A stretch of DNA of 64,000 nucleotides from positions 24,468 through 88,467 of the forward strand of contig JBGPJF010000004.1 of assembly GCA_041485285.1 (NCBI GenBank), in the 5' to 3' direction. The DNA comes from Thermoplasmata archaeon. GTDB lineage: Archaea; Thermoplasmatota; DTKX01; DATEUP01. The notes under the pieces were generated by a model that was given only the letters and a program-made list of their open reading frames with translations, had not been told where the DNA came from and made no database searches. A program made the translations under genes and the position numbers. The first letter of the stretch is position 1, and every line of letters begins with the position of its first letter. Below, one piece after another: positions 3,520-64,000 of this stretch.

Positions 3520-3520
3520 C

Positions 3521-4627: not shown

Positions 4628-4774
4628 CTCGCGCTCATCGAGCGGGAGCCGAAATAAGCCTTCGCTGGGGGGGAGTGAAAGCGTCCTGAACGGCCGGGGA
4701 GAGCGCCGCCCTTATCTCCTTTCCGGGCGTGTTGGCATCGGCGGCGGCATGGAAGTGCGATCGGGGGATGGGGA

Positions 4775-26230: not shown

Positions 26231-28963
26231 CTAGCGCGCAGCCCGGTGGCGCCGCCAGACGTAGAGGCCGACCCCCAGCACCGCTATTGAGACAATTCCG
26301 AGGAACGCGAGGCTCAGGCCCGTTAGTTCGTCCCGGGTTACAATGAGCGGGTCGGGCCCGCTCATGTCATACGCTACTAGGAGGCGAATGGCGGCTTCGC
26401 GGTGAAGTCCCTCGGCCTCCGCTTCGATGCGAAGGTCGTAGTGGCCCCCTGGAAGAAAATTCGCGCCCTCGATGACGAAATTGCACGACCCGCCTACTGG
26501 GAGCGCCGCCGGGGTGCACGTCCCGACGAGGCCACGCGGCGCCCCGAGAAGGCGCACGGTGAGCGGGCCTCCGGCAAAGCCGTGCAAGCCGACCGCGTCG
26601 AGGGTGACGTTTGCTTGCCCATGTTCAAAAAACTGGGCGTAGCCCTGCCGCGGCGAGAGGACAAAGTCCGGGCCCGTGACGGGGCGGTAGATGGGCACCA
26701 AGGACACCGGACCTTCCACGTCTTCGAACCGGTCGCGTGGCCCGGGGGGCGTCCACCCAACAAATGCCAACTCGCCTGCGGCGTTTGATGTAACGAGGGG
26801 CGCTTGGATGTGGTGCAGCCCGACCCCGACCCACTCGGAGTAACTGCCCCCGTAGACCGTCCCATCGATCAAGATCCCTGGGTCAAACTGCGCGGAGGTA
26901 ACCGTGAGCAGGGCTTCGAGGCGCCATGCGGGTCGGTACGCTGTCCCGGGCCCGCAGGTTACGTTGATGTCCGTGCCGAGGTCGGCCGGCCACCCGAGGA
27001 ACGTCCACCGAAGGCCCTGGGGGGCCGCCGTCGGCGGCTGCGCGTGCAGGTGGAGGGTGCTACCGGCCGTGCACGCGTGGGTGGTATCGCGAAGAGCGGG
27101 GACGCCGTCAATGGTCGCGGAAGCCCCGTCGTACAAACCCCCCATTGAGATGAAGGACGTCGGCGCTAGCGTCAATTTGGCAACCCCGATTGTCTGGGGT
27201 GCACCGGGGGCTCCATCAAACACCGGGAGCCGCTGCAAGGCCGGGCCGGCGAACACCGACGAGGCAAAGTTCCCTGCAACGGCCACGGCCCCGTCCGGCA
27301 TGAGCGCGACCGCCTCGACCGTGTCTAACCCGTCGCCACCGAGGTAGGTCGATTCGTCGAGGTGGGTGCCGTCGGCGGACACACGCATTACAAACCCGTC
27401 GAAGGGGTCCAACTCGGAATCGTAGGCGCCCGGTGAGATGGGAATGAACCCGCGCGCGGTGCCGGCGATGTAAGCGGTCCCGTTGTTATCCAGCGCGAGG
27501 CCCGAGGCCGACGATCCCTCGCCGCCGAAGGTCGCGGCAAACTCGAGGCGGTCGCCTTCGGGGGCGAGCTTTGCAAGGAACAGGCCGGCGACGAGGTCCC
27601 CACCGGCAAAGGCGCCCGCGGTCTCGGGGAACGGCGCAAGGCCCGTGACTGAAATCGCACCCGCGGCGACCGCGGCGGGGATCCTTGCGGGGCTGTTCCC
27701 CGCGACGTACGCGGCTCCCGCCGCGTCGAGGGCGATTGCGCCCGCCTCCCCGCCCGCGCCACTTCCAAGCCCGGTCGAAAAGATCGCGCGAGTGCCATCG
27801 GCCGCGAGCTTGACGATGAAGATGCCCTCTCCATCTCCGCTCTGGGAGTTCGGTCCCACCGTCCAACGGAATCCGGCGAGTGAGGAGCCCGTCGCGAATG
27901 CGTTGCCGTTTGAGTCCACGGCAACGGCGGTGGCGGTGCTCAGGGGGCGCTCGAAGGCGGGTTCTTGCCAACTGGCGTTGCCGTCGAGGTACGTGGAAAA
28001 GGCGACGGAGCCACCATCCGCCGCGACCTTCATCATGAACGCGCGCTCCCCCGCGCGCCTCTCGACATCGTAGGCTCCCGGCGTTAGGGGAAACGGCTCC
28101 GCGTTCGGGAGCCCTTCTGGGTAGGTGCGCCCCACGAGGAATGCATGACCCTGGGCGTCCACCGCCAGGTCCTCCACCTCGCAGCCCGGGATCCGCGTGC
28201 TGAAGACCAGCGATGTGCCGTTGGGCGTCAACTTCGCAAGGTAGCTTCCGCCGCCGTCGTGCGAGAACGCGTTGGCGGTCGTGGGGAAGTGCGAATCCCT
28301 CGACCACCCCCCGATGTAGATGAAACCGTCGCGGTCGACGGCCGCCGAGGGTTGCCCGTCGTACCAGGAGCCGCCAATGCGGGCGACGAAATCGTAGGAG
28401 GCGCCCGAGCCGTTGATCTTGGCCACAAAAATCTGGCCGCCGCTGGTGTTGAGCGCGCCCGCGGTGGCCGAGAACGCCTCCGACAAGGTTACGCCAACAA
28501 TGATCACCGCCCCATCGGGGGCCACAACCATGTCCATAAGGCGGTCGGGGGCGTTGCCTCCGGCAAAAGCGATGTAGTGGACGGTCGCGGCCTCGGCAGG
28601 CGCGGGGACACCGACCGCGAGCAACAGGAACACCGCGGTTGAAGCGGCGGCGCGGGCGCCTCTCGAACGTCTCTGGGTCATGACCGTCCAGCCCCGCCTC
28701 GCCCTACGATGGAGAACCTCTTGTGGGGCCACGTATTGGAATTTTCGGTATGCCCGGCTCGGCAGCGACTTCGTTTTCAATCGGGGCGCCCCCACTTTTG
28801 GCGCCCGGGGGCGTTTCGGGCGGCCTCTGCGGAGGGCCTTTTCGGGGCCCGTCCCGCAGCCACCCCCAGGGGCACCGGAAAGCGGCCGCAAAAGGGGCGG
28901 GCGGGAACACGGAATTCGAAGCGAAATTCCTCCCAAAATGGCTGGAATCTGGCCAATGATCAC
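26231..28963 (-). CDS. Cell-surface protein with SBBP beta-propeller repeats and a C-terminal TM anchor
   Basis: Signal-like 'AAASTAVFLLLAVGVPAPAEA'. Repeated 'GG...D.G..IAVD..G..Y..G.T.S..FP' units. C-terminus 'LSLAFLGIVSIAVLGVGLYVWRRHRAAR'. Confidence 0.65.
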   Translation of the reverse strand: MIIGQIPAILGGISLRIPCSRPPLLRPLSGAPGGGCGTGPEKALRRGRPKRPRAPKVGAPRLKTKSLPSRAYRKFQYVAPQEVLHRRARRGWTVMTQRRSRGARAAASTAVFLLLAVGVPAPAEAATVHYIAFAGGNAPDRLMDMVVAPDGAVIIVGVTLSEAFSATAGALNTSGGQIFVAKINGSGASYDFVARIGGSWYDGQPSAAVDRDGFIYIGGWSRDSHFPTTANAFSHDGGGSYLAKLTPNGTSLVFSTRIPGCEVEDLAVDAQGHAFLVGRTYPEGLPNAEPFPLTPGAYDVERRAGERAFMMKVAADGGSVAFSTYLDGNASWQEPAFERPLSTATAVAVDSNGNAFATGSSLAGFRWTVGPNSQSGDGEGIFIVKLAADGTRAIFSTGLGSGAGGEAGAIALDAAGAAYVAGNSPARIPAAVAAGAISVTGLAPFPETAGAFAGGDLVAGLFLAKLAPEGDRLEFAATFGGEGSSASGLALDNNGTAYIAGTARGFIPISPGAYDSELDPFDGFVMRVSADGTHLDESTYLGGDGLDTVEAVALMPDGAVAVAGNFASSVFAGPALQRLPVFDGAPGAPQTIGVAKLTLAPTSFISMGGLYDGASATIDGVPALRDTTHACTAGSTLHLHAQPPTAAPQGLRWTFLGWPADLGTDINVTCGPGTAYRPAWRLEALLTVTSAQFDPGILIDGTVYGGSYSEWVGVGLHHIQAPLVTSNAAGELAFVGWTPPGPRDRFEDVEGPVSLVPIYRPVTGPDFVLSPRQGYAQFFEHGQANVTLDAVGLHGFAGGPLTVRLLGAPRGLVGTCTPAALPVGGSCNFVIEGANFLPGGHYDLRIEAEAEGLHREAAIRLLVAYDMSGPDPLIVTRDELTGLSLAFLGIVSIAVLGVGLYVWRRHRAAR

Positions 28964-38535: not shown

Positions 38536-41500
38536 CTAGCACGGCGGCGGCGGGCTGTTCGGGTCGGCAAGGAACTCGCGCGGCACATTGCACCACTCGG
38601 GGTGGCTCGCCGGGTCGCGCGGGTTGAACCAGGGCGACGAGCGCGCCTCGATGACCGTCTTCCAGCCGTCGAGGTCGGGGTCGGCCTCGCGGCCGTTCAC
38701 GCCGGTGCGGTCGGCGTCGTCGAAGCCGAACATGGCCTCGTACCACCGAGGCAGCTGGTCGAAGTCCCGGTCCTTGAAGTACTGCACGAACCCGTCGACC
38801 GGGCCCTGGCAGTTCTGCGCCGCGGCGGTGATCTTCTTGCCCGGGTGCGTCGTGACTTCGTTGATCCCGTCGCCGTCGATATCGTCGCCGAACCAATACT
38901 CCTCGATGTTCGTGAACTGCTCGTTGTCGAGGTAGTCGTCGACCACGCCGTCGCCGTTGAAGTCCCGGCGCGTGATGACCGCGGGGTAGCTGCCGGAGCA
39001 GATGTCAATCGGCTGGCTCGAGTCGACCACGCGGCTGTAGTTCCAGCCGTCGTTGTCGGGGTCCTGGTTCGCGTCGCCCGGGTAGAGGGGGTCGAGGATC
39101 GGCTTGCCGGTCGTTGCGTTGCCAATCGCGTACTGGACTTCCCAGCCGTCCGGCATCCCGTCGCCGTCGGTGTCGGGGTCGAACGCGCTCGTCTTCTTCA
39201 CGGCCTCCACGGTGTTGTTGATCCCGTCGCGGTCGATGTCGCCCGTCGAGTCGCCGCGGCGGACCGGGTTCAGCGCGGTGGCATTGACCGATGGGTTTGT
39301 GGGACGCTTGGAGTGCCACAGGATCACCGGGTCGAGGTCCTTGTCGTCCGTGTAGAACTTCTGGTAATCGACGCGCGTCTGCGTGAAGTTGAAGCTGCCG
39401 TCCACGCGGATGACCGGGTGTCCGGGGTTGTCCCACGCGTCATAGTCCGAGTCGCCCATGCGCGGGTTCGTCGAGATGTGGTTGTAGGGGTCGCGGGCGT
39501 ACACGTACTCCTCCCAGTTCGTCCAGTTGTCCGCGAGGATGACGATGCCCGTGTCAGGGTCAACCTCGTGGGTCGCGTTGAGCTCCTTGTCGAGGTTCGT
39601 GCTGTAATCGGCGGGGTCCGCGGGGTTGAGCCCGTAATAGGACTCCCACCAGTCGGCCATCCCGTCGTGGTCGCCGTCGCAGGAGAGTGGGTTGGCGATG
39701 AACACGTGGTTGTACTTGTCGGGGACCGCTTCGTCGAGGTGCCCGCGGGGCGGGGTGTTGTAGAGGTACTCGTCGAGGTCGAAGAACCCGTCGTTGTCCG
39801 CGTCGGCAGAGCAGCCGTTCGAGGGGACATAGGGGTCGAACAGGTTGGCCTTCTCCCACCAGTCGGGCATCAGGTCGCCGTCGGTGTCCGCGTAGACCGG
39901 GAGCCGCGGGATGTAGAACTTGCCCGGCTGCTCGTTGGTGTCGATGACGCCGTCGCCGTCGGTGTCAAGGTCGATGGGGTTGAGGCGCAGGATGTACTCC
40001 TGCATGTTCGTGAGGCCGTCTCCGTCGAAGTCGTCGTTGACGTCGTCGATGAGGTTCCCGTTGGCGTCGGTCTCCTTGTAGGCGAGCGGGTAGATTCCAA
40101 GGAAGTCGAGCTCCCATTTGGTCGGCAGCCCGTCCCCGTCGATGTCGCTGTTGTCGAATTCGAAGCCGTCCGTGAGCCCGTCGCCGTCGGTGTCGGGGAT
40201 GGTGGGGTCGGTCGAGTCCACCTGCTCCTTGGCCGTGCCCGCGATGAAGTTGCCCGGAATCCAGTCCGTGTTGACCTCGAAGCCGTCTTGGAGTCCGTCG
40301 TTATCCGTATCTGGGTTTAATGGATCCGTACAGCGCGTCACGTTGTCCGTGAACCCAGGCAGGTAGAGCCGCATGCACTCTTCGAGGCCGCCCTCCACCA
40401 CGTGGGGCACCTCGTTGAAGTCGTCGAGCTTGTCGCCGTCGGAGTCCTTCAGGTTCGGGTTCGTCCCCTGGATGCCGGGCTTGCTCTCGTTGCGGTCGGT
40501 GAAGAGTTCGACCCAGTCGGAGAGGCCCTCGAGGTCGGTGTCGGCGTTGGTCGCGTTGGTCTTGTAGATCGTGACCTCGTTCCAGTCGCACAGGTCGTGC
40601 TCCTCGTCGACGCCCTCCGGCAGCCAGGACGAGGGCTCGGTGCCCGCCGGGCCGGCGGTCGGGACCTTGCCAAACGGCCCGTCGTCGATGACGCTGTCGC
40701 CGTCGTTGTCGATGTTGTCGTTCTGCTGGAACTTGGCGTCGCCGTCGTTGTCCACGCCGTCGAGGATCTCCTCGCAGGGCGCCGAGTTGCCATCGCCGTC
40801 TTCGTCATCGGGGTGGTCGTCGATGTCGGTGTCGGCCGTGGTGGCGTCGGTGCGGTAGGAGTAGGTCTTGCCCTCGACGCTGACCGTCCAGGTCTTGGTC
40901 ACTTCGTCGAAGTCGGAGAGGAAATCACCGTCGGTGTCGATGCGCCGCGGGTTGGTGTGGGCGTAGAACTCCTGGAGGTTCGTGAGCCCGTCGGGGGTGA
41001 CCACGCCGCGGGTCAGGTCAACGTCCTGCAGCGCGTCGTTGTGGCACGTGTCAAGGGTGTACTGCGCCTCCCAGCCGTCGGGCATCAGGTCTTGGTCCGT
41101 GTCGTTGTTGCGCGGGTTGAGGCGGCAGCCCGGGTTGTTGTACTCGTTGATGTTCGGAAGGCTGTCGTTGTCGGGGTCCTGGAATTTGTCCGAGCCGTTC
41201 AGCGGCAGCAGGCTGTAGAACACTTCCCAGCCGTCGTCCATCCCGTCGCCGTCGGTGTCGGGGCTGATCGGGTTGGTGCCGAGGATGAGGACTTCCTGCA
41301 TGTCGGCGGTGTTCCAGTCGGTGATCGGGACGCCTTCCTCGGGCACCGGGTAGGTGTCGTTGTCCGAGTCGGCCTGGTCGGGCCGCGTGTGGAGGTAGAA
41401 CTCGTCGATGTTGGTGCCGGCCAGCACGAAGTCGCTCGGCGACACATCGGGGGGGACTTCGCGCAGGCACGTGCCGTTGACGGGGTCGCGCGGCAGGCAC

Positions 41501-42732
41501 TGGCGGTTGGTGAGGGGGCTGTAGTACTCCTGGTAGCTGATCATGATCCCGTCGTTGTCGGGGTCGAGGTGGGCGTCGGTCGTGTTGACGGGGGAGAGGA
41601 AGAAGTCCCAGACCCACTGGAGCACGGTCGAGCCGTTGGTGGCAAGCGCGTGGCCCTTGCCGTAGTGGGCTTCGAACCCGTCCCACATGCCGTCGCCGTC
41701 GGTGTCGCGCAGGAGGGGGTTGGAGCCCGTGAGGCGCCCGCTTCCATCATAGTCGTGCCAGGTCTGGTATTCCTGGATGTTCGGGAACGTCTCGCCGCCG
41801 CGGACTTCGAGCCACCAGTTCTGCGCGTTGTCCGGGTCGACGTGGAAGAGCCCTTCGAGGTTGATGAGGTCGCCTTCGATCCAGCCGCCGGTGCGCTGCT
41901 GCCACGCGGCAAGCTGGGCGGGGCGGCTCGAGCCCGAGGTGAGTTCGACGCGCAGGTCGCACTCGTCGCGCGGGGTGTAGAGGGTCGCCAGCCCTTCCGA
42001 GCGGGTGGTGGTGTCGGTGACATGGACGTTGAGGGCGGAGGAGGGGTTGGTGTCGGGGTCGCCGTAGGTGCCGTTGTCCATCACGGCGGTGCGGTCGAAC
42101 CGCACGAGGAGGCCGTCGTAGGCGAGCTGGTTCTGCGAGAGGGCGCACACACCGAGGGTGGTGTACTGCGACTTCGGGGGGATCGAGAGGTTCGAGCGCA
42201 GGACCGAGTCCTGGTAGGAGTCGACGCGGTTGTTGTTGTTGAAGTCGTAGCCGTCGTTGTCGGGGTCTTCGTAGGCGTCGGTGGGGTCGACGGGGTCGAT
42301 GACCAGTTCGCGGGTCTCGCTGTTGCGGGTGTCCTTGTACTGGACTTCCCAGGGGTCGGGCATCCCGTCGCCGTCGGTGTCGACCTTGTTGACGTCGGTG
42401 CCGTAGATGTAGTTCTCATCGATGTCGAAGAGGCCGTCGTTGTCGCTGTCGATGCCGGGGATGTGGGGGGTGGGCTGGAGGGCCGAGAGAGGCTCCTGGC
42501 CGACGGGCTTGTACACGCCCGCGGTTTGCGAGGACAGGAACGCGGCCACGACAATCATGAGGAGGGAGGCGGCGATGAGTACCGCGACCACGAGGATTTC
42601 GAGGTTGAGCGTGGGGAGCCACGAGCCTTTCTCCTCGGTGGCAGGGGCCTCGGGGCCCAGCGTGGTTGCTCTCGAACCAACGGCCGGGGTCGCCACGATA
42701 TTTCCCTTCCCGCACCATCTTGTTGCATTCAA
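38536..42732 (-). CDS. Giant (1398 aa) surface protein built of calcium-binding thrombospondin-type-3-like Asp-rich repeats, with an N-terminal signal anchor
   Basis: More than 25 copies of 'DxDxDGxxDxxE'-type motifs ('DTDGDGMPDPWE', 'DTDGDGMDDGWEVFY', 'DSDNDTY', 'DPDNDG'). N-terminal TM 'LEILVVAVLIAASLLMIVVAAFL'. Confidence 0.7.
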   Translation of the reverse strand: MNATRWCGKGNIVATPAVGSRATTLGPEAPATEEKGSWLPTLNLEILVVAVLIAASLLMIVVAAFLSSQTAGVYKPVGQEPLSALQPTPHIPGIDSDNDGLFDIDENYIYGTDVNKVDTDGDGMPDPWEVQYKDTRNSETRELVIDPVDPTDAYEDPDNDGYDFNNNNRVDSYQDSVLRSNLSIPPKSQYTTLGVCALSQNQLAYDGLLVRFDRTAVMDNGTYGDPDTNPSSALNVHVTDTTTRSEGLATLYTPRDECDLRVELTSGSSRPAQLAAWQQRTGGWIEGDLINLEGLFHVDPDNAQNWWLEVRGGETFPNIQEYQTWHDYDGSGRLTGSNPLLRDTDGDGMWDGFEAHYGKGHALATNGSTVLQWVWDFFLSPVNTTDAHLDPDNDGIMISYQEYYSPLTNRQCLPRDPVNGTCLREVPPDVSPSDFVLAGTNIDEFYLHTRPDQADSDNDTYPVPEEGVPITDWNTADMQEVLILGTNPISPDTDGDGMDDGWEVFYSLLPLNGSDKFQDPDNDSLPNINEYNNPGCRLNPRNNDTDQDLMPDGWEAQYTLDTCHNDALQDVDLTRGVVTPDGLTNLQEFYAHTNPRRIDTDGDFLSDFDEVTKTWTVSVEGKTYSYRTDATTADTDIDDHPDDEDGDGNSAPCEEILDGVDNDGDAKFQQNDNIDNDGDSVIDDGPFGKVPTAGPAGTEPSSWLPEGVDEEHDLCDWNEVTIYKTNATNADTDLEGLSDWVELFTDRNESKPGIQGTNPNLKDSDGDKLDDFNEVPHVVEGGLEECMRLYLPGFTDNVTRCTDPLNPDTDNDGLQDGFEVNTDWIPGNFIAGTAKEQVDSTDPTIPDTDGDGLTDGFEFDNSDIDGDGLPTKWELDFLGIYPLAYKETDANGNLIDDVNDDFDGDGLTNMQEYILRLNPIDLDTDGDGVIDTNEQPGKFYIPRLPVYADTDGDLMPDWWEKANLFDPYVPSNGCSADADNDGFFDLDEYLYNTPPRGHLDEAVPDKYNHVFIANPLSCDGDHDGMADWWESYYGLNPADPADYSTNLDKELNATHEVDPDTGIVILADNWTNWEEYVYARDPYNHISTNPRMGDSDYDAWDNPGHPVIRVDGSFNFTQTRVDYQKFYTDDKDLDPVILWHSKRPTNPSVNATALNPVRRGDSTGDIDRDGINNTVEAVKKTSAFDPDTDGDGMPDGWEVQYAIGNATTGKPILDPLYPGDANQDPDNDGWNYSRVVDSSQPIDICSGSYPAVITRRDFNGDGVVDDYLDNEQFTNIEEYWFGDDIDGDGINEVTTHPGKKITAAAQNCQGPVDGFVQYFKDRDFDQLPRWYEAMFGFDDADRTGVNGREADPDLDGWKTVIEARSSPWFNPRDPASHPEWCNVPREFLADPNSPPPPC

Positions 42733-42988: not shown

Positions 42989-43014
42989 CCATGGAGGGGG
43001 ATACCCCTCCATGG
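42989..43014 (+). promoter_or_regulatory. Perfect 11-bp-stem hairpin overlapping the transposase start codon (probable translational attenuation of transposase)
   Basis: Sequence 'CCATGGAGGGG-GATA-CCCCTCCATGG'. The 3' arm contains the ATG at 43011. Confidence 0.5.
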
Positions 43015-44111
43015 TCCTACACGTCCGTGAGATCTCGAACGACGAGGGCAACCGCCTCTCCCGCCTCGTGAAGCGAACGAACAACGTTGTCACGATGCGT
43101 CGCGCACAGGTTCTCCTTCATTCCGCCCAAGGATTCACTCCACCGAAGATCGGCGAGATGCTCTGGATCTCGACAGACTGGGTCCGGCACATCATCAAGG
43201 AGTTCAACGAGCAGGGGTTCGATTCCCTGCGCCCGAAGCCGCGCGGGGGCGGGCGCCCCCGCGTGTTCGACGACGAGATTCGACTGGAGATGGTCAACCT
43301 CGCCCTCACGCCACCCCGAACGCTCGGGTACCCTTTCGAGAAGTGGTCGCTGCGCAAGCTGCGCGAGGCGATCATCGAACAGGGAATCGTTGCGGACATC
43401 AGCGTCTCGAACGTCCAGAAGATCATGACGGAGGAGATGCTCGGCTACCAAGTCGTGAAGACCTGGAAGGAGAGCAAGGACCCCGACTTCCACGAGAAGA
43501 AGAGTCGGGTCGACCGCCTCACGCGCAAGCGCCACAACCCTCCCGTCGTGATCGCGTACGACGAGTTGGGGCCGCTCGAATTGCGGCCCATCAAGGGCGG
43601 GCACTGGGCGCGGTCGGGGCACCCCGACCGCGTGCCGGCCACGTACAAGCGGAAGGGCGGGACGAGGCAGTTCCTTGTGGCGTTCAATTTCTACAAAGGG
43701 ACTTTCTTCGGGCGCCTTCGAAAGCGCAAGCGCTCGAAGGAGATCTTCGCCTTTTTCCGGCTCGTCCGTCGGCACTACCCAGCGGACCAACGGATCTACC
43801 TGATCATGGACAACCTGTCGGCGCACCTCACGCCCGAAATCCGCGTGTGGGCCAAGGCCCACAAGGTTACGCTCGTCCAGACCCCGACGAACGCCTCGTG
43901 GTGCAACCCGATCGAGGCGCACTTTGCAAGCGTGCGGACGCTCGCCTTTTCGGGGACCAACCACCAAGATTGGAGCGCTGCGGGCCGCGCGCTCCACAAG
44001 GCGCTTCGATGGAAGAACTCGCACCGCAAGGAGATGCTGCAGGCGCGCGAGGACCGCCGGCGGAGGCGCCGGCGGCAGCTCTGGCGAGTACGGGCAAATG
44101 TAGGAGCCTAG
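43011..44111 (+). CDS. IS630-family transposase (HTH plus DDE domain)
   Basis: N-terminal HTH, 'DELGPLELRP', 'LIMDNLSAHLT', 'NASWCNPIEAHF' (DD(34)E-type). Confidence 0.85.
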   Translation: MVLHVREISNDEGNRLSRLVKRTNNVVTMRRAQVLLHSAQGFTPPKIGEMLWISTDWVRHIIKEFNEQGFDSLRPKPRGGGRPRVFDDEIRLEMVNLALTPPRTLGYPFEKWSLRKLREAIIEQGIVADISVSNVQKIMTEEMLGYQVVKTWKESKDPDFHEKKSRVDRLTRKRHNPPVVIAYDELGPLELRPIKGGHWARSGHPDRVPATYKRKGGTRQFLVAFNFYKGTFFGRLRKRKRSKEIFAFFRLVRRHYPADQRIYLIMDNLSAHLTPEIRVWAKAHKVTLVQTPTNASWCNPIEAHFASVRTLAFSGTNHQDWSAAGRALHKALRWKNSHRKEMLQAREDRRRRRRRQLWRVRANVGA

Positions 44112-44814: not shown

Positions 44815-45359
44815 GCGGGGGCCTCCTCGAGGTAGTCGATGCGGCCGGCGCGCAGCGAGGTGGCTTTCCCGGCGGCAACGCGCATGACCGCCCCGGCAGC
44901 ATGGGGCGCTCGCGCCCCGCCTGTCGAAAACTCGAACACGCGGCGCACCCCGAGCCGTTCGACGGCCTCGGTGGCGATCACGCCAACCGCCTCGGCGCAG
45001 ACATTCTCGCGGACCTTGGGCTCCGCCCACCCGCGCCGCCGCAGCCGCCGCGCCAAAAGCGGCGGCGGGCAGCGCAGTACGAGCGCGCAGTCGACCGACA
45101 GGAAGTGGGCGAGGTGCCCTTCGAGCACAAGGGGCGCCGCTTGGGGGAACGCCTTGGCGCGCTTCGACACCGCGCGGTCGAGCGCGTGCACATCGACCTC
45201 GAACGACCCGCGCCGTTGGTCGCGGGCGCCGAGCAGCCCCGCGCGCGCGGCCTCCGCGTTCAGCGAGAGCACCGGAACCCCGCGGCGAGAAAGCGCGGCG
45301 CCAACGGCGCTCTTGCCCGTGCCCGGCGTGCCGGTGAGTGCGACCCTCACAGGCCGCAA
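44805..45359 (-). CDS. P-loop nucleotide kinase, Fap7/adenylate-kinase-6-like
   Basis: Walker A 'LTGTPGTGKSAV' and a size of about 180 aa. Fap7 is the usual partner of Nob1 in small-subunit rRNA maturation. Confidence 0.55.
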   Translation of the reverse strand: MRPVRVALTGTPGTGKSAVGAALSRRGVPVLSLNAEAARAGLLGARDQRRGSFEVDVHALDRAVSKRAKAFPQAAPLVLEGHLAHFLSVDCALVLRCPPPLLARRLRRRGWAEPKVRENVCAEAVGVIATEAVERLGVRRVFEFSTGGARAPHAAGAVMRVAAGKATSLRAGRIDYLEEAPAWC

Positions 45360-45413
45360 TCAGCCGGGTCAAAGGCTTTAACTTTCGCCAGGGCGCTTGC
45401 AAGAATCGGTTCC

Positions 45414-46604
45414 ATGGCGAAACCGGCTTCGATCGACGAAATGACGGTGGGCGACGCGCTGGAACCCATCAAGGCGACGGTCGGCCAAGATGCCACGCTT
45501 GCCCAAGCCCTGGGCGCGATGAAGAAAAACGGGCTCCACGACCTCGCGGTGATGGGCCCGAAGGGCGAGCTGCTCGGAATCCTCTCCGACGAGACGCTGC
45601 TCAAGCGGCGGCGCCTCCCCCTCGGGTCGCACGTGTCGAACCTGCTGGTGGTCCCTCCGCGGATCACCACCGACGAGCCGCTGGCGAAGGGCGCGGAGGC
45701 GCTGCTCTCCAACGGCCTGCGGGAGCTGCCCGTCTTCCAGCCCGGGGGCAAGACCGTTGCCGGCCAGATCTCGCGGTGGGGGCTTCTCGAGATCCTGCGC
45801 CGCGACCCTGAAATCGCAAAGCTGCCGGCCCATGCGGTCATGACGCCCGACCCGGTCGTGGTGAAGGAGAGCGACACCATCGACCACGCCATCGACGAGA
45901 TGCGCAGGCTCGACGAGCCCACGATCCCAGTCGTGGACAAGGGCGGCGACTTGGTGGGCGTCGTGAGCGCGCGCGACATCCTGCGGTTGTACGCCGGTTG
46001 GGCGGCCCAGCCGCGGGTGCCGAAGGGCTCGGTCAAGGGCAAATCGGCCTCGAGGGCAACGGTCGAGGGCGTCATGACCTCGCCGGTGGTCGAGGCCAAC
46101 CGGGACGCAACCGTCGAAGAGCTTTCCTCGCTCATGCTCGAATCGAAGGCCTCCTCGGTCGTGATCACGGACAACGAGAAGCCGAAGGGCATCGTGACGA
46201 AGGGCGACTTGCTCGAACTTCTGGCGTCGGTTGCCCCGCGCGAGGGCTGCTTCCTGCAGGTCACGGGGCTCGAAGGCCACGACCCCTTTTTGCTCGAGGA
46301 CGTGTTCAGCGTGATCGAGCCGGGGATTCAGCGGATCGCCGTGCACGCGAAGCCCATGACGTTCAACGCGCATGTGATGGAGCACCACCGGACCTACGGA
46401 CACCGCGGCGAGGTGCGCGCGCGCCTGCAGACGGACCGCGGCCTGTTCACGGCCACGGCGGAAGACGAAGACGTGCTGCGGGCGGTCGACTCCGTGCTCC
46501 AGCGGCTGGAGAGCCAGGTGCGCCGCGACAAGGAGAAGCACCGCCCGAGCCCGAACAAGGCGCGCGCCGGCGCGATGCCGCGCGGGCGCGCGAAGCTGCA
46601 GTAG
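45414..46604 (+). CDS. Four-CBS-domain (two Bateman modules) protein fused to a C-terminal HPF/RaiA (ribosome hibernation factor, S30AE) domain
   Basis: CBS signatures four times ('LHDLAVMGPKGELLGILSDETLL', 'LPVFQPGGKTVAGQISRWGLL', 'IPVVDKGGDLVGVVSARDIL', 'VVITDNEKPKGIVTKGDLL'). The C-terminus 'FLQVTGLEG...GEVRARLQTDRGLFTATAEDEDVLRAVDSVLQRLESQVRRDKEKHR' aligns with E. coli HPF '...[34 protein letters not shown]'. Confidence 0.7.
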   Translation: MAKPASIDEMTVGDALEPIKATVGQDATLAQALGAMKKNGLHDLAVMGPKGELLGILSDETLLKRRRLPLGSHVSNLLVVPPRITTDEPLAKGAEALLSNGLRELPVFQPGGKTVAGQISRWGLLEILRRDPEIAKLPAHAVMTPDPVVVKESDTIDHAIDEMRRLDEPTIPVVDKGGDLVGVVSARDILRLYAGWAAQPRVPKGSVKGKSASRATVEGVMTSPVVEANRDATVEELSSLMLESKASSVVITDNEKPKGIVTKGDLLELLASVAPREGCFLQVTGLEGHDPFLLEDVFSVIEPGIQRIAVHAKPMTFNAHVMEHHRTYGHRGEVRARLQTDRGLFTATAEDEDVLRAVDSVLQRLESQVRRDKEKHRPSPNKARAGAMPRGRAKLQ

Positions 46605-46625: not shown

Positions 46626-46943
46626 TTGGAGCGGGCCCCCGCCGAAAGCCGTCCGGACGCCACGCCCCACAAGGGCTCTTCGAAGAGAGCCTATGCGGCC
46701 GTCGGCGCGGGCCTCTCGGTGTGCGCCGCGGCCCTCACTTTCGTGGTCGCGAACATGACCTCGTGGATTCTATTCCACGACCCTGGCGCCTTTCCTGCCT
46801 CGAACTATGGGCGAATTGATGCGGTCGGCCTCATCCTGTTCTGGGCGATCGACGGGACAGTCATCGCGATCACCGCACTGATCTGGGTTCGCGGTGTGTT
46901 TGCGCCCGACCCTCTGTCTCCGCTCGCGCTCCGCGACCCCTAG
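46626..46943 (+). CDS. Small membrane protein
   Basis: Sequences 'LSVCAAALTFVVANMTSWILF' and 'AVGLILFWAIDGTVIAITALIWV'. Confidence 0.35.
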   Translation: MERAPAESRPDATPHKGSSKRAYAAVGAGLSVCAAALTFVVANMTSWILFHDPGAFPASNYGRIDAVGLILFWAIDGTVIAITALIWVRGVFAPDPLSPLALRDP

Positions 46944-47965
46944 CGCGGCTCCGGCAATCCCCACTGCTTGGCCTGCACCGCCTGCGCGCGTTCGACCGCC
47001 ACGGTGCCGACGGCCCGGTAGTCCTTGACCTCGTTCAGCGACGTCGAAAACGGCTTGCCTTCCACGGATGCCGCGATACCCGCAACCGTCTCCGCGAGCG
47101 CCAAGAGGTTGTACCCGCCCTCGAGCACGAACACCGCGGGCATCTTGGCGTTCTGGCGCGCGAACTTCGCCACGCGCGTGCACAGGTCGATGTACGCCCC
47201 CGAGGTGAGCGTGAGCCCCGCGAGCGGGTCCTCGTAGTGCGCGTCGAGGCCGAGCGACACGATCACGGCTTTCGGCTTGGACTGCTCGAGGACGGGGAGC
47301 AGCACGCGGTCCCACGCGAGGCGGAAGGTGGCGTCGCCCGACCCCTCGGGGAGCGGGATGTTCACGATGCGGCCCACGCCCGCGCCTTCGCCGACTTCCT
47401 CGACGCTCCCGGAGTTGGGGTAGATCCCTTCTTGGTGGGTCGAGAGGTACACAATGTCCTTGCGCGACTGGAAGATCTCCTGCGTCCCGTTGCCGTGGTG
47501 CACATCGAGGTCGACGATGGCCACGGGGGAAAGGCCCTCCTCCTTCGAGAGGTGGTGCGCGGTGACAGCGGCGTTGTTGAAGTAGCAGAACCCGCCGGCA
47601 AAGGCGGTGCCCGCGTGGTGCCCGGGGGGACGCGTGAGCGCGAAGGCCTCCTCGTTCTTTGACATCGCGTGGCGCGCGGCGGCAAGGGCGGCCCCCGCCG
47701 CGATGAGCGCCAGCTGGTAGGTGCCTGGCCGAATGAACGTGTCCGCGTCGTAGGCGCCTTCCTTCGTGTGCATGATCTTCTCGACGAAGGCCTCGTCGTG
47801 CACGTGGCACACATCGCGCTTGCCTGCAGGGGCGGGTTTGATGAACCCGTCCAGGCGCCCTTCCGTCTCCAGCCGATCGACAATTGCCTGGAGCCGCTCC
47901 GGCCGTTCGGGGTGGCCGGCCCACTGGACATGCTCCAGCGACCGAGGGTGATAGACGAACTTCAC
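46940..47965 (-). CDS. Histone deacetylase / acetoin-utilisation AcuC-family deacetylase
   Basis: Motifs 'RPPGHHAG', 'GFCYFNNAA', 'VDLDVHHGNGTQ', 'SLGLDAHYEDPLAGL'. Confidence 0.8.
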   Translation of the reverse strand: MKFVYHPRSLEHVQWAGHPERPERLQAIVDRLETEGRLDGFIKPAPAGKRDVCHVHDEAFVEKIMHTKEGAYDADTFIRPGTYQLALIAAGAALAAARHAMSKNEEAFALTRPPGHHAGTAFAGGFCYFNNAAVTAHHLSKEEGLSPVAIVDLDVHHGNGTQEIFQSRKDIVYLSTHQEGIYPNSGSVEEVGEGAGVGRIVNIPLPEGSGDATFRLAWDRVLLPVLEQSKPKAVIVSLGLDAHYEDPLAGLTLTSGAYIDLCTRVAKFARQNAKMPAVFVLEGGYNLLALAETVAGIAASVEGKPFSTSLNEVKDYRAVGTVAVERAQAVQAKQWGLPEPR

Positions 47966-57457: not shown

Positions 57458-57658
57458 ATGGCGACACCCAAGGTAACCACAATCCAGCTCCCCCCAAAGG
57501 TGCGCGACCGCCTGAAGGGCTACGGGTTGAAGGGTCAGTCGTACGCCGACGTCGTCGTCCAGCTGATGAACCGCGTTGACTACGAGGAATTCATGGAACG
57601 GCAGTACCGGCGGCTGGCCAAGCGGAAGGACTTCACGCCGCTCGACGAGATCGCATGA
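57458..57658 (+). CDS. Small antitoxin-like protein partnered with a RelE/ParE toxin
   Basis: 66 aa. The stop overlaps the toxin start by 4 nt (ATGA). 'TIQLPPKVRDRLKGYGLKGQSYADVVVQLM'. Confidence 0.55.
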   Translation: MATPKVTTIQLPPKVRDRLKGYGLKGQSYADVVVQLMNRVDYEEFMERQYRRLAKRKDFTPLDEIA

Positions 57659-57930
57659 CGTTCCAGGTCTCCCTCCACCGGGAGGCGCGCAAATTTCTGG
57701 AGCGAGTTCAGCGGACGCAAGGGCAGCGAATCAAAGCCGGGCTCCGGGCGGTGGAGGTCGACCCCTTCACGCCGCGCTCGGGCGCAGACATCAAACGGCT
57801 CGACGGGACGCGCGGGCGCGACGACCTGTATCGGCTACGCGTCGGGAAATTTCGCGCGGTTTACCAGGTTGACGGCAGCGACGTCCTCGTCCCCGAGATC
57901 TGGGAGCGCGGCCACGGCTACGACATTTAG
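57655..57930 (+). CDS. RelE/ParE-family toxin
   Basis: Sequence 'FQVSLHREARKFLERV...RIKAGLRAVEVDPF...GADIKRLDGTRGRDDLYRLRVGKFRAVYQVDGSDVLVPEIWERGHGYDI' is the canonical RelE/ParE signature. Confidence 0.75.
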   Translation: MTFQVSLHREARKFLERVQRTQGQRIKAGLRAVEVDPFTPRSGADIKRLDGTRGRDDLYRLRVGKFRAVYQVDGSDVLVPEIWERGHGYDI

Positions 57931-60538: not shown

Positions 60539-60754
60539 ATGACGCTGTCGGAACCCGAGGTAACCCTCCCGCACGCGGACCTTTTCTGCCCCGCGTGCCA
60601 AACCGTCCGCCGCCACGATTTCCTCAACCCCGAAGACCCCACGCGCGTCCGCTGCGAGAAGTGCGGGGGCACGCGCGACCTGAACGCCTGGGAGCCCGAG
60701 GAGAGCGAGATCAGCCTTGCCGGCTATTCGCCCAGCGACGACGACGAGAGCTGA
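60539..60754 (+). CDS. Small zinc-ribbon protein with an acidic C-terminal tail
   Basis: Sequence 'CPACQTVRRHDF...RCEKCGGTRDLNAWEPEESEISLAGYSPSDDDES'. Start at the internal ATG 60539. Confidence 0.45.
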   Translation: MTLSEPEVTLPHADLFCPACQTVRRHDFLNPEDPTRVRCEKCGGTRDLNAWEPEESEISLAGYSPSDDDES

Positions 60755-60787: not shown

Positions 60788-61426
60788 TTGAGCGAAGAAT
60801 CCACCGACGGCTCGTCGCCGCTGGACGCGGTCTTCGAGAAGGCCGTGCGGCCGTACCTCACCACCGACGCCCTGCGGAAAGATTTCGCCGCCGACACGCC
60901 CGTCATCGTCATGGGCAAGGGCGACGACCTGCCGACCGAGACGCGCAAACTCCAAGGCGGCGGAACGCTCACGGTCCCCGTGCTTGCCGCCCTCAAAGAC
61001 TCGAAATTCGCCTCGAAGAGTACCGTCGGGGCGTTCGATTTCTCATCGATGGACGCCGACGCCGTCGCGCTCATGCTCCCCAAGGGCGGCACGGGCACGA
61101 GCGACATCCGCGTGGTTACGAAAGCCGGAAGCGGCGCCCTGCTGGTCGCCGACCTCGACGGGATGCTCGAAGGCGTCGTGGCGCTTGCCGACAACCCCGC
61201 GATGTCCGCGTTCCCCGGCGGCTCGTTCCTCATGGACGCCTTGCGCACCGGCATCAGCCAGGCCAAAGAGGAACTGCGCGGCGCGCTCACGACGCCCGAC
61301 GCCACCGGCAAGAGCCTGCTGGACCAGCTCCACGATGCGGCGCCCGAAGCGCAGCCTTCCCAGGCCAAAGGAAGCCGCTCCGCGAAAGCCCCCAAGGTCG
61401 CGGGCACCGGGGGTAAGCACCGGTAG
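60788..61426 (+). CDS. Hypothetical protein
   Basis: 212-aa ORF with a Lys/Ala-rich C-terminus. No recognisable domain. Confidence 0.35.
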   Translation: MSEESTDGSSPLDAVFEKAVRPYLTTDALRKDFAADTPVIVMGKGDDLPTETRKLQGGGTLTVPVLAALKDSKFASKSTVGAFDFSSMDADAVALMLPKGGTGTSDIRVVTKAGSGALLVADLDGMLEGVVALADNPAMSAFPGGSFLMDALRTGISQAKEELRGALTTPDATGKSLLDQLHDAAPEAQPSQAKGSRSAKAPKVAGTGGKHR

Positions 61427-61466
61427 GGTTTATCCGCCTCCCCGTTGTGCCTGAAAATGGCAGGCA

Positions 61467-64000
61467 ATGGCTGATCGGTCGAAGTCGGTAGAGGTTGCTG
61501 GCATCAGGGTGACCGCCGACACGGTGGTCACGGACATCCAGCGCCTGCACACCCTCGGCCTGTTCAACTACGAGGCATTCCGCGACATCATCCTCCCCCT
61601 GGAGTGCATCAATAACGCCCTCGAGGGCGTCCGCCGGCGCTATTATTCGGGCGCATGGACGGGGGACAAGGCGGTTTACACGGCCGACCAAGCCGCCCTC
61701 GTCTTGGATTTCACCGTGCGCCTGCACGAAGAAGAGATCTTTCCCAATTTCGAAGCCCATTACCAGATACTGAGCCCCGTCCCGATGTTTGCCTATGAAG
61801 GGTTTGGGCGCCTCGTTGCGGCGCTCGAGGTGGCGGCGAGCCAACGCCTATTCGATGGGAACAGCGCGTGGCTCTTCAGGTCGCTCGTCGCGCGGCTCGG
61901 CCCCGCCCCCGCAACGCCCCGCGACTTCGAGAGCCTCGCAGCCTCGCCCAACCAGCTGCGCCCGCTGTTCGAGGATTTCCACGGGAAGAAAGAATGGAAA
62001 AGCGCCAGCATCCGGACGCCTTCGCTCGACGAGGTCCAACGGATCCAGACGTACCCACGCGAGGCCGCCATCCTCCTTTGGATCTGGGCGCCCCGATGGC
62101 GGGCCGTCCTCGACGAGGCCCTGGGCGTCCCGGGCCTATCGGCGCGCGTCCGCGAGGACGGAGCGTACGAGGAACATGCAGTGGAGCCTGAGCGTGCCCT
62201 GTTCGAGGCGGGCCTTTTCCCCTACGCCACATTTGCCTACGTCGCGCGCCGCTCGATGACCTCGCACGGGGTGCTGCAGGAGCTTTCCGAATTTGAAACC
62301 CGGGTGCTGCGGAGCCCCCGTTCATCGCGCGGCAGCGAGGAGGCGCACGTCGAGCCGGACGCGGGCGCAAGGCGCGCGGAGTTTGCGCTTGGCATTCAGG
62401 CCTACGTGAACAAATTCGTGCACGAACTTGCGGGGACCGCCCCTGAGGCGTGCGCGGAGGCTGTACAAGTCATCACGCCGGGGGCGGTGGAGGGCTCCGC
62501 CCTCGTGCTGCTGGCGCTCGAGCGGATCAAGGAGGCCGGCGCAACGAGCCTCGGCGTCGGCCCCCAGGGCGCGGGAAAAACACCGAAGGGGGCGGTCGGC
62601 ATGCTCCTGAAAACGCGGCCCTCGTTCGAAGAGCCTCGGGCGTCGGTTGTGGAATCGCTCAAGAAAACCTCGGCGCAGACGCTCCTCGTCGCGGGGTGTG
62701 TCGCGTACCCGTGGAGGCAATTCTTCGAAGAGGCCCTGGCGATGCCGGGTTTTGCGCTGTTCATAGAGGCGGTGTACGGGCTCGGGAAGCGTGCGCCCGC
62801 GGAGGAGGGCGAAGACCCCGACAACTTCGAGAAGATCTCGGATTGGGGCGTCCTCCTCAAGGTCCCCGACTGCAACGACCCGACATGCGGCGTGGTGGAC
62901 CGCACCGCCGTCGAATCGGCGGCCACAGCGCTGGGGAACGGGGGGGTCCGCAAAGTCATCGAGACCTTCGAGCGGCGCGTGAAGCTCGGGCGCCCCGACG
63001 CCATCTTCCTCGTCCAGGCGGCGCTCGGCCTCAACCGCAAGGAAGTGGAAGCTCGAGTGGCAAAGCGCTCGCAGCTTGGAATCAAAGCCCTCGGCGGCCT
63101 GCCGGGGACGGCCGATGTGGAGGCCCGCCATGGGCAGATTCTGACGTTCGCGCGCGGAGCAGCCAAGGGGGGCAAGATCAAACGCGAGAGCGAAGAGGCG
63201 GCGGCCGCCGTCGCTCTTCAGAACCTCGCGGCGGTGGCCGGCCTCAGCTCGCCGGCCCGCCTCGAATGGCGCTTCGAGATCCGCCCCGCGGCAGTGAAGG
63301 CCCTCGGCGACGGGACCTTCAAGGTCGCCGACACGGAGTGCCGGATCAGCGTGCTCGGGCGGCGCCCAGAACTCATCATCTCGAAGGGCGACAAACGGGT
63401 CGCGCGTCCGCCGCCGATGATCACGAGCGCGAAGTGGTTCCTCGAATTCAAGGCCCAACAGAAAGAGCTCGGGGAAGTCGCGGACCGCTACAAGAGCGCG
63501 TTCGAACTCCTCATGTGCGACGGCTCGATGCTCTCGGAGGCGGAACTGCGCTTCCTCGACGGCGACTTCGCCGCGCGCGAGATTCTTCCGACGCTCGTGC
63601 TGTGGGACGGGAAGCGGAAGCTCCACCTTGGCCCGCCGAAAGACGCGCCGGCCCCGGCGAAGATCGCCCACCCCGCCGCGCTTGCGGTCGCGGGCCTGCT
63701 CAAGCAAGCCCAGACGCTCGTCGAGGAGAGCGGCATTGAACAGGCCTTCGAGCAGGTGGAGCGCAAGTACTTCGTACCTGGCGAGGGCGAGGGCGGCCGC
63801 CTGTCCACGCGCTTCGCGGGGGAGACGGGCGGCTGGATGCAATTACCCGCACGCCTGCGCAAGCGGGGCTGGAAGTGGGTCGATGAAAGTGATTCGTATC
63901 GCAGACTCTGGGGGGGGTACTCGGTCTTCATCGAGCGCCCCGCGCCCGCCTACCCGCAGTACCGCATGCGCGGGCTGTACTTCGAAAGGTCCGACGCGAA
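61467..64000 (+). CDS. Large uncharacterised, predominantly alpha-helical protein (over 844 aa, 3'-truncated by the window end). Not listed in the ORF track because no stop codon occurs before nt 64000.
   Basis: Manual translation from ATG 61467 in frame 3 (start position divisible by 3) is open to the window end: 'MADRSKSVEVAGIRVTADTVVTDIQRLHTLGLFNYEAFRDIILPLE...WDGKRKLHLGPPKD...RLWGGYSVFIERPAPAYPQYRMRGLYFERSDA'. An in-frame TGA lies at 61452-61454 just upstream. Antisense frames across the region are abnormally open, which is typical of a GC-rich coding region. Confidence 0.65.
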   Translation, partial: MADRSKSVEVAGIRVTADTVVTDIQRLHTLGLFNYEAFRDIILPLECINNALEGVRRRYYSGAWTGDKAVYTADQAALVLDFTVRLHEEEIFPNFEAHYQILSPVPMFAYEGFGRLVAALEVAASQRLFDGNSAWLFRSLVARLGPAPATPRDFESLAASPNQLRPLFEDFHGKKEWKSASIRTPSLDEVQRIQTYPREAAILLWIWAPRWRAVLDEALGVPGLSARVREDGAYEEHAVEPERALFEAGLFPYATFAYVARRSMTSHGVLQELSEFETRVLRSPRSSRGSEEAHVEPDAGARRAEFALGIQAYVNKFVHELAGTAPEACAEAVQVITPGAVEGSALVLLALERIKEAGATSLGVGPQGAGKTPKGAVGMLLKTRPSFEEPRASVVESLKKTSAQTLLVAGCVAYPWRQFFEEALAMPGFALFIEAVYGLGKRAPAEEGEDPDNFEKISDWGVLLKVPDCNDPTCGVVDRTAVESAATALGNGGVRKVIETFERRVKLGRPDAIFLVQAALGLNRKEVEARVAKRSQLGIKALGGLPGTADVEARHGQILTFARGAAKGGKIKRESEEAAAAVALQNLAAVAGLSSPARLEWRFEIRPAAVKALGDGTFKVADTECRISVLGRRPELIISKGDKRVARPPPMITSAKWFLEFKAQQKELGEVADRYKSAFELLMCDGSMLSEAELRFLDGDFAAREILPTLVLWDGKRKLHLGPPKDAPAPAKIAHPAALAVAGLLKQAQTLVEESGIEQAFEQVERKYFVPGEGEGGRLSTRFAGETGGWMQLPARLRKRGWKWVDESDSYRRLWGGYSVFIERPAPAYPQYRMRGLYFERSDA

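Follow-up and report, generated by a model that had tools for sequence, protein, structure and literature searches.

Proteins that carry the Pfam domain DUF4132 form a family that is already known, though uncharacterised, and YehI and MolR/YehH are, to our knowledge, its only named members. A literature search found DUF4132 mentioned in few papers and found no mention of DUF5724 or DUF7737, two domains that accompany it in the relatives described below. Here we describe a very divergent member of the family that is encoded at the 3' end of a 64,000-nucleotide stretch of a Thermoplasmata archaeon contig (JBGPJF010000004.1; the whole stretch is referred to as the window). The gene begins at position 61467 on the + strand and is open to the window end, and its complete product is referred to as P0001. 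What is new in P0001 is that it is archaeal, that it has neither DUF7737 nor the small partner protein of its relatives, that its N-terminus is an orphan, and that its gene is inserted, as an optional element, into a cluster of core genes. It is probably a maintained, single-gene form derived from a two-gene module.

The drA0165-drA0166 operon of Deinococcus radiodurans is preceded by a DdrO operator, and mitomycin C treatment raises the level of DRA0166 in an IrrE-dependent manner (PMC8533742). A study of DR_A0165 treated it as a small 'sORF-encoded peptide', found that it binds thioredoxin and influences the tolerance of oxidative stress, and considered it Deinococcus-specific (PMC9650054). 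In our comparisons DR_A0165 is a member of a widespread family of partner proteins with ubiquitin-like (Ubl) predicted folds, and the pair in this organism is DRA0165-DRA0166. P0001 shares the end of the solenoid, the DUF4132 module and the FSExxRD linker with DRA0166, which has DRA0165 upstream, and with P0165/P0002, the latter encoded with a 136-amino-acid (aa) partner. However, P0001 is without DUF7737 and without a Gly-Gly partner, its version of the QPFKQVFRELY motif is changed, and its N-terminal 340 aa are unrelated. In addition, the P0001 gene is inserted in an exosome/ribosomal cluster, whereas the Ubl-partnered relatives adjoin metabolic genes.

Escherichia coli YehI shares the Pfam domain DUF4132 (161.8 bits) with P0001. 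However, YehI has DUF4132 alone, without DUF5724 and DUF7737; its region encodes no Gly-Gly partner, and a BLASTP comparison with P0001 aligns only 84 residues (E=0.011). This weak alignment, the single-domain composition and the lack of a partner argue that P0001 originated in the partner-bearing branch of the family and not in that of YehI. The E. coli yeh cluster also contains genes for a WGR protein (YehF), a MoxR ATPase (YehL), a DUF5682 protein (YehM), a VWA protein (YehP) and a SWIM protein (YehQ), as well as the yehH/molR pseudogene. The WGR, MoxR AAA+, VWA and SWIM genes of this neighbourhood have no counterpart among the 39 window genes scanned or in L001, a second assembly of the locus; DUF5682 is likewise absent from the window genes.

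Among solved structures, HEAT/ARM solenoid scaffolds (karyopherins, CAND1 and PP2A-A-like proteins) are the only PDB matches of the P0001 model, and these matches are not significant. The scaffolds have no sequence relationship to P0001, and the alpha/beta module of DUF4132 is without a solved structural counterpart.

The open frame is a DUF4132-family gene

The first-pass annotation, made from the window alone, had proposed that a single frame runs without a stop from the ATG at 61467 to nucleotide 64000, and that it was missing from the list of open reading frames (ORFs). Translation of the + strand confirms 844 codons without a stop, and the ORF listing does omit frames that run off the window end. 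Upstream, the frame is closed by the TGA at 61452, and no start codon precedes ATG 61467 after this stop. The full ORF, to be sought by extending the contig, is found in three other assemblies (L001–L003; one JGI, two Logan), which encode an identical protein of 898 aa. The complete gene ends at the window-equivalent position 64163, 54 codons beyond the window end (window coordinate = L001 coordinate + 51466). The 'invisible' 2.5 kb stretch of the window is now an annotated gene.

The GC content of the region is 64–68%, and stop-free runs of more than 500 codons are numerous on both strands of the window, so the openness of the frame is weak coding evidence. A 506-aa frame lies antisense within the gene (62322–63842, −); this is a GC-rich shadow ORF, not a gene. 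The large ORF is identified as a real gene by its GC periodicity, its Pfam match to DUF4132, its homologs and purifying selection. GC1, GC2 and GC3 are 0.695, 0.477 and 0.836, and the pattern is uniform across every 300-nt block, with coding-type GC3 extending through the orphan N-terminus too. An exhaustive HMMER phmmer search of 1.84 billion representative sequences returned 654 homologs at E<=1e-3. This exhaustive search was needed; word-indexed searches, whether started from the 844-aa fragment or from a profile of 31 sequences, recovered only P0001 itself, probably because Ala-rich words swamp the candidate stage. Comparison with an orthologous gene on contig L086 gives nonsynonymous and synonymous divergences of dN=0.215 and dS=0.99, and dN/dS is ~0.22 over the 108 C-terminal codons compared, with dS near saturation. 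The gene is under purifying selection. Its codon usage is typical of the host, ranking 7th of 21 long genes by distance from pooled usage. Codon-position statistics inconsistent with coding and a lack of homologs had been named as possible grounds for refuting the gene, and neither applies here.

Domain architecture and homologs

The first-pass annotation had noted a tentative resemblance to DUF4132, and the Pfam search bears this out. The DUF4132 (PF13569) match has E=4e-13 and 50.1 bits against a cutoff of 27, and spans aa 649–802 and profile positions 8–179 of 179. A DUF5724 match is marginal (25.9 bits against a cutoff of 25) and covers aa 538–602, corresponding to profile positions 1145–1213 of 1214, the C-terminal tip of that domain. 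DUF7737 (PF24879) has no match in P0001 at E<=1. Alignment with homologs, in which DUF7737 is ~103 aa long, shows that ~100 residues are missing at the C-terminus of P0001, which stops at residue 898, 24 residues past the conserved FSExxRD linker. The parts of the gene that lie in the window are as follows.

61467–64000, +: first 844 of the 898 codons of the DUF4132-family gene for P0001 (open frame, GC3, identical full-length protein in L001–L003)
61467–62486, +: orphan N-terminal region, aa 1–340; helical in a low-confidence model, with no detectable homolog or Pfam match
62487–63410, +: conserved alpha-solenoid region, aa 341–648; homolog alignment starts at ~aa 341, and the end of the region is the DUF5724 C-terminal tip
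63411–63872, +: DUF4132 domain, aa 649–802, a mixed alpha/beta module (PF13569 match)
63873–64000, +: start of the conserved linker after DUF4132, aa 803–844 in the window; the linker continues to ~aa 874 and is followed by a 24-aa tail

The relatives of P0001 are 23–35% identical to it and cover only residues ~341–871. Most are bacterial, but the closest is archaeal. The closest homologs are P0002/P0165 (35% identity), P0003 (33%) and P0004 (33%). The best phmmer matches begin at residues 341–390, and among the matches listed none begins before query residue ~264. Similarly, a BLASTP comparison of P0001 with P0165, the closest full-length homolog, aligns only 341–871. All nine homologs tested (9/9) consist of a variable helical N-terminus, the C-terminal part of DUF5724, DUF4132 and DUF7737, and the DUF5724 C-terminal segment precedes DUF4132 in all of the top matches (P0002–P0017). 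Homologs of 1,600–1,700 aa carry the full DUF5724 with HEAT repeats. The DUF7737 consensus has conserved His and Cys residues.

Contigs that share neighbour genes of P0002/P0165 carry PriL and a LonB-type protease, which indicates that the host of P0002/P0165 is archaeal. Nucleotides 1–200 of L093, at the end of this ENA contig, translate to 'FPTRRSSDL / TLFPYTTLFRS'. We take this to be typical of sequencing-adapter read-through; it would account for the N-terminal truncation of P0002 there. A set of 79 related loci was collected from species-representative genomes with the pattern QPF[KE]Q[VA]FRE, which P0001 itself lacks; all are bacterial, at 23–32% identity.

P0001 keeps 62 of 107 columns that are at least 85% conserved in 30 homologs. 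The residues retained from the family invariants include P649, A734, H735, Q749, Q759, Q763, R766, R782 and W802, as well as S861, E862, R865 and D866. Approximately 22 of the 45 conserved columns lost are accounted for by the absent DUF7737. The core motif of the family, QPFKQVFRELY, reads QAFEQVERKYF in P0001, a change at 6 of 11 positions. The family sequence MRDxDLxVSVA is likewise replaced by IRDVHWAVLEA in P0001 and by IRDVNWAVLEA in L086, and the short C-terminal tail is also conserved in L086. As the derived motif and the short tail are common to both lineages, the truncated, derived state arose before the window and L086 lineages separated.

P0001 is a cytoplasmic, non-membrane protein of about 100 kDa. 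An AlphaFold2 (AF2) model built from the 31-sequence alignment has a mean predicted local distance difference test (pLDDT) score of 70.9 and a predicted template-modelling (pTM) score of 0.70. The model is confident for residues ~300–877, which form a helical solenoid followed by an alpha/beta module, and pLDDT is mostly 80–97 in the solenoid region (aa 341–648). It is below 50 for residues 37–190, across much of residues 37–240 and in several stretches up to ~296. The product had been expected to be predominantly helical; the model agrees, with the alpha/beta C-terminal module in addition. A Foldseek search with the model gave only weak matches to HEAT/ARM-type solenoids (best E=4e-3, TM below 0.25), and sequence searches of the PDB with P0001 and with the family profile gave nothing meaningful. 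As the first-pass annotation had found from the sequence, none of these sequence and structure comparisons led to a functional assignment.

A Gly-Gly partner gene in the relatives

In 68 of the 79 bacterial loci an ORF of 130–170 aa lies directly upstream of the large gene on the same strand (51 found by clustering and 17 more with a hidden Markov model, HMM). It often overlaps the large gene by 1–20 nt. Most of the remaining loci are on contigs that are cut at the start of the gene. The partner is also found upstream of the near homologs P0003, P0004 and P0165, and its presence upstream of the archaeal P0165 indicates that the canonical two-gene module exists in archaea as well. Copies of the partner are located in the bacterial loci L004–L082 and at L084 7543–7953, L094 4427–4837, L100 75–485 and L087 1612–2016.

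The partner family has no Pfam model, and all 139 homologs in a large protein database are annotated as 'hypothetical'. The penultimate glycine is invariant. Most partners end in ...RLxxLxGG; members from Bacteroidota and Firmicutes end in G(S/R)x(W/Y). The AF2 model of the partner (pLDDT 70.2) has the topology beta-beta-alpha-[insert]-alpha-beta-beta-beta, and the top 50 Foldseek matches in the PDB are almost all beta-grasp ubiquitin-like proteins. The top match is MOCS2A/MoaD (probability 0.99, TM 0.65 on target length, E=0.019), and the others include further MoaD proteins, ubiquitin, SUMO, ISG15 and ThiS. The likeness to MoaD, ThiS and ubiquitin thus concerns the predicted beta-grasp fold of the relatives' partner, which in most cases ends in a free ...LxGG, and not P0001. 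However, the partner differs from these proteins in having no sequence-level similarity to them, an insert of ~45 residues and, in Bacteroidota and Firmicutes, a tail without GG. We rejected the partner as a sequence-recognisable ThiS or MoaD protein (hhalign probability 1% against true ThiS, no PDB profile match); only the predicted fold supports the resemblance.

A search of six-frame translations of the window, L001 and L083 with the partner HMM gave nothing significant (best E=0.019, antisense to gyrA). We considered whether a disguised partner might be the 212-aa gene or the zinc-ribbon gene upstream of the large ORF, or the orphan N-terminus of P0001, and rejected this, since none has similarity to the HMM. 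Genes for E1, E2 or JAB proteins are not recurrent near the 79 related loci, and the 39 window genes scanned include no gene for Ubl, E1, JAB, MoxR, VWA, SWIM or WGR proteins. That this branch of the DUF4132 family has a near-obligate partner, predicted to fold like MoaD/ubiquitin, is a by-product of the analysis that is perhaps of wider interest than the ORF itself.

A presence/absence insert in the exosome/ribosomal cluster

The large ORF lies within the archaeal exosome/ribosomal gene cluster. The genes there are, in order, pfdB (−), pcc1 (−), a zinc-ribbon gene of 71 aa (+), a gene of 212 aa (+), the DUF4132 gene of 898 aa (+), rpoP (−), L37ae (−) and RNase PH Rrp42/41 (−), and the genes upstream of the large ORF, including pcc1/pfdB on the − strand, are as they had been described. 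The large ORF is a single-gene insert of ~2.8 kb in this cluster, present in some relatives and absent from others. The features adjoining it in the window are as follows.

60539–60754, +: zinc-ribbon gene, 71 aa, CxxC...CxxC, native to the site and not tied specifically to the large ORF; only sub-threshold zinc-ribbon Pfam matches
60788–61426, +: 212-aa hypothetical gene, native to the site; homologs of 193–204 aa abut rpoP in L083, L088 and L092
61427–61466, +: 40-nt spacer from the 212-aa gene to the large ORF, inside the insert; TTTAT motif ~35 nt before the ATG
61357–64000, no strand: the part in the window of the segment inserted relative to the empty site of L088 (blastn of L088 against L001)

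Three related Thermoplasmatota contigs, L083, L088 and L092, carry the zinc-ribbon gene and a gene for 193–204 aa next to rpoP, with spacers of 6–12 nt and no large ORF, which argues that both small genes are native to the site and that the large ORF is a separate insert. The idea that the three genes occur together as a unit, raised in the first-pass annotation, is therefore not supported. L088 is very close to the window lineage, with identities of 100% for L37ae, 100% for RpoP, 99% for the zinc-ribbon protein and 97% for PfdB; the L37ae identities of L092, L083 and L086 are 96%, 80% and 70%, making L086 the most distant. The zinc-ribbon protein is 80–99% identical in relatives without the large ORF. 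Family searches gave no match for the 212-aa protein. It is fast-evolving, with 52–79% identity to its relatives compared with the 80–99% of the neighbouring zinc-ribbon.

The breakpoints were mapped by blastn of L088 against L001. Homology on the left ends at L001 9890 (window 61356), ~70 nt before the 212-aa gene ends, and on the right it resumes at L001 12712, 14 nt after the stop of the large ORF. The whole insert is L001 9891–12711 (window 61357–64177), or 2,821 nt compared with 48 nt in L088, and L083 and L092 give the same picture. The last ~23 codons of the 212-aa gene (61357–61426) are replaced by the insert, so that its product ends in …AKGSRSAKAPKVAGTGGKHR instead of the Lys-rich …KKKKPAA of its relatives.

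A second occupied site is found in L086. It contains a partial ORF, open to the contig start, that is 71% identical to residues 791–898 of P0001, ends at the same C-terminus and has the same 24-nt spacing from stop codon to rpoP. The gene is under purifying selection in two diverged lineages, yet is missing from closer relatives, and to account for this patchy distribution one needs either repeated loss or exchange by recombination. In the comparison of the window lineage with L088, dS is 0.38–0.56 in four genes to the left of the insert and 0.11–0.18 in three genes to the right. A step of this kind, approximately three-fold, is what homologous recombination through the conserved flanks would leave if it had carried the gene, or the empty allele, from one related archaeon to another. 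Recent direct transfer from a bacterium is unlikely given the host-like codon usage, the occupation of the same site in L086 and the archaeal origin of the nearest homolog with the full architecture. A scan of metagenome contigs with the patterns ETGGWMQ and GWKWV[DE]E, conserved in both archaeal copies, gave 254 pattern matches and no relative, evidently because the source samples are not part of that collection. It is possible, judging from the arrangement, that the large ORF is co-transcribed from a promoter of the zinc-ribbon gene or transcribed from the TTTAT element in the 40-nt spacer.

The locus represents a clean natural experiment, in which close relatives with and without one inserted gene can be compared within a highly conserved archaeal cluster. 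The occupied and empty sites offer a way to follow the recombinational gain and loss of accessory genes in core regions.

Interpretation of the single-gene form

Taken as a whole, the explanation that we consider likely is that P0001 is a maintained, single-gene, derived form of a two-gene DUF4132 module, carried as an optional insert. That the gene is real, belongs to the family, has the architecture described, is an insert of patchy distribution and is under selection is shown by the results above. The ancestral module would have consisted of a ~140-aa MoaD/ubiquitin-like Gly-Gly protein and a large protein with the order solenoid, DUF5724 C-terminal part, DUF4132 and DUF7737. The lineage of P0001 would have lost the partner gene and the whole of DUF7737, rewritten its most conserved motif and come to carry an unrelated N-terminus of 340 aa; it would have retained the conserved part of the solenoid, and DUF4132 along with most of the invariant polar residues. 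The insert was probably gained or lost by homologous recombination through the conserved flanks. The joint loss of DUF7737 and the partner suggests that the two may act together in canonical systems. An archaeal form that keeps DUF4132 without either suggests that DUF4132 is useful alone, and provides a concrete handle on the family.

Several points weigh against this explanation or parts of it. P0001 is changed at 23 of 85 conserved columns outside the missing DUF7737 region, and these changes, together with the loss of DUF7737 and the partner, could mean that the ancestral activity is gone. The dN/dS estimate covers only 108 codons, in which dS approaches saturation, and stronger codon bias in the ribosomal and RNA polymerase genes to the right of the insert may partly cause the step in dS. 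The partner could lie elsewhere in the host genome, of which the analysis covered 64 kb and short contigs. Taken singly, the fold matches of the partner are weak, none reaching E<=1e-3 in Foldseek, and neither the hhalign comparison with ThiS nor the PDB profile search reflects the resemblance. Finally, we know of no biochemical function for any DUF4132 protein.

The role of P0001 within this explanation is much more tentative. P0001 may be a non-enzymatic scaffold in which DUF4132 binds the ligand of the family without the Gly-Gly partner, possibly in a stress response as in Deinococcus. DUF4132 would then have a separable role in binding a ligand or protein, which would be presented on the solenoid scaffold with a new N-terminal arm. 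This proposal is drawn from the fold class, a helical solenoid with no recognisable catalytic domain; the stress-response part is a guess by analogy with Deinococcus. A more speculative proposal, which we regard as improbable, is that the two-gene module is an unrecognised, DNA-damage-induced system for handling ubiquitin-like proteins. In such a system DUF7737, with its conserved His and Cys residues, would act on the Gly-Gly tail by processing or attaching it, and the beta-grasp protein would be bound by DUF4132; P0001 would be a binding-only offshoot rewired to archaeal Ubls (SAMP/MoaD/ThiS) or their conjugates.

Among explanations of a different kind, the gene could be a mobile component of a conflict or defence system, exchanged among archaea as an accessory gene and selected intermittently, for instance against viruses, as is the case for many large solenoid proteins of patchy distribution and fast evolution. 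The presence/absence polymorphism in close relatives, the recombination-like dS step at the insert and the lineage-specific N-terminus are consistent with this, as is the location of bacterial relatives in DNA-damage regulons, which is shared by many prophage and defence genes. However, P0001 and the two genes upstream of it, typical members of the family and the partner are all without a match in PADLOC-DB 2.0. No relation to phages or PHROG families and no match to a phage record was found, and the only plasmid matches are to Deinococcus megaplasmids. P0001 has no nuclease, ATPase or other effector domain, no defence genes are located nearby, and the flanks are ribosomal and exosome housekeeping genes. 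We therefore consider a defence function unlikely.

It is also unlikely that the ORF is a decaying remnant, left over from a former two-gene module and drifting to loss with no function of its own. Such decay would fit the loss of DUF7737 and the partner, the change of the core motif at 6 of 11 positions and the absence of the gene from three closer relatives, one with identical L37ae and RpoP. However, all 898 codons are intact in three assemblies, dN/dS is 0.22 relative to the ortholog of a lineage with L37ae at 70% identity, and coding-type GC3 is uniform, orphan N-terminus included. Additionally, both lineages have the short tail and the derived motif IRDV[HN]WAVLEA, which argues that the truncated form is old and maintained.

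A three-gene operon with the upstream zinc-ribbon and 212-aa genes is very unlikely. The genes are on the same strand with gaps of 33 and 40 nt, making co-transcription plausible, but in L083, L088 and L092 the site holds the zinc-ribbon and ~200-aa genes and no large ORF, neither small gene resembles the partner of the family, and homologs of either are recurrent in none (0/79) of the related loci. A chance open frame, of the kind that high GC produces in numbers (such as the overlapping 506-aa antisense frame), can be dismissed given the Pfam match above the curated cutoff, the hundreds of homologs, the strong GC3 periodicity and purifying selection.

Other genes of the window and related contigs

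The remainder of the window encodes gyrase A/B, PriS/PriL, eIF2-gamma, TFS, S6e, Sua5 and a TrpRS/TyrRS-class synthetase, together with large PKD/SBBP surface proteins, an IS630-type transposase and a ParE-type toxin pair. The proteome of the region is not acidic, and RpoP and PfdB sequences within 90% identity are labelled Candidatus Thermoplasmatota archaeon; a haloarchaeal host, considered in view of the high GC and HVO-type domains, was rejected on these two grounds. Approximately one fifth of the window is taken up by four predicted surface or secreted proteins of 760–1,415 aa (18–2300, 21155–25402, 26231–28963 and 38536–42732), the domains of which include PKD, FG-GAP/UnbV_ASPIC, SBBP beta-propeller, DUF7948 and bacterial TSP3 repeats.

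The IS630-type transposase (43011–44111, +) has DDE_3 and HTH domains. Seven members at least 90% identical to it occur on other contigs, which suggests that the insertion sequence is active in the population. A two-gene pair at 57458–57930 (+), with weak matches to DUF7557 and ParE toxin, is likely a toxin-antitoxin module and is flanked by a glycosyltransferase gene and a DHH/RecJ-like gene.

On L083, the RNase PH gene beside rrp42 (3151–4632) is called as 493 aa, approximately twice the usual length of Rrp41, which may reflect a fusion or a gene-calling artefact. In the window, a gene at 44901–46604 (+) encodes two CBS domains fused to an S30AE/hibernation-factor-like domain, and a gene of the histone-deacetylase family is adjacent (46940–47965, −). 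The same pair is present on L093/L097, a distant archaeal contig on which the closest DUF4132 homolog is also encoded.

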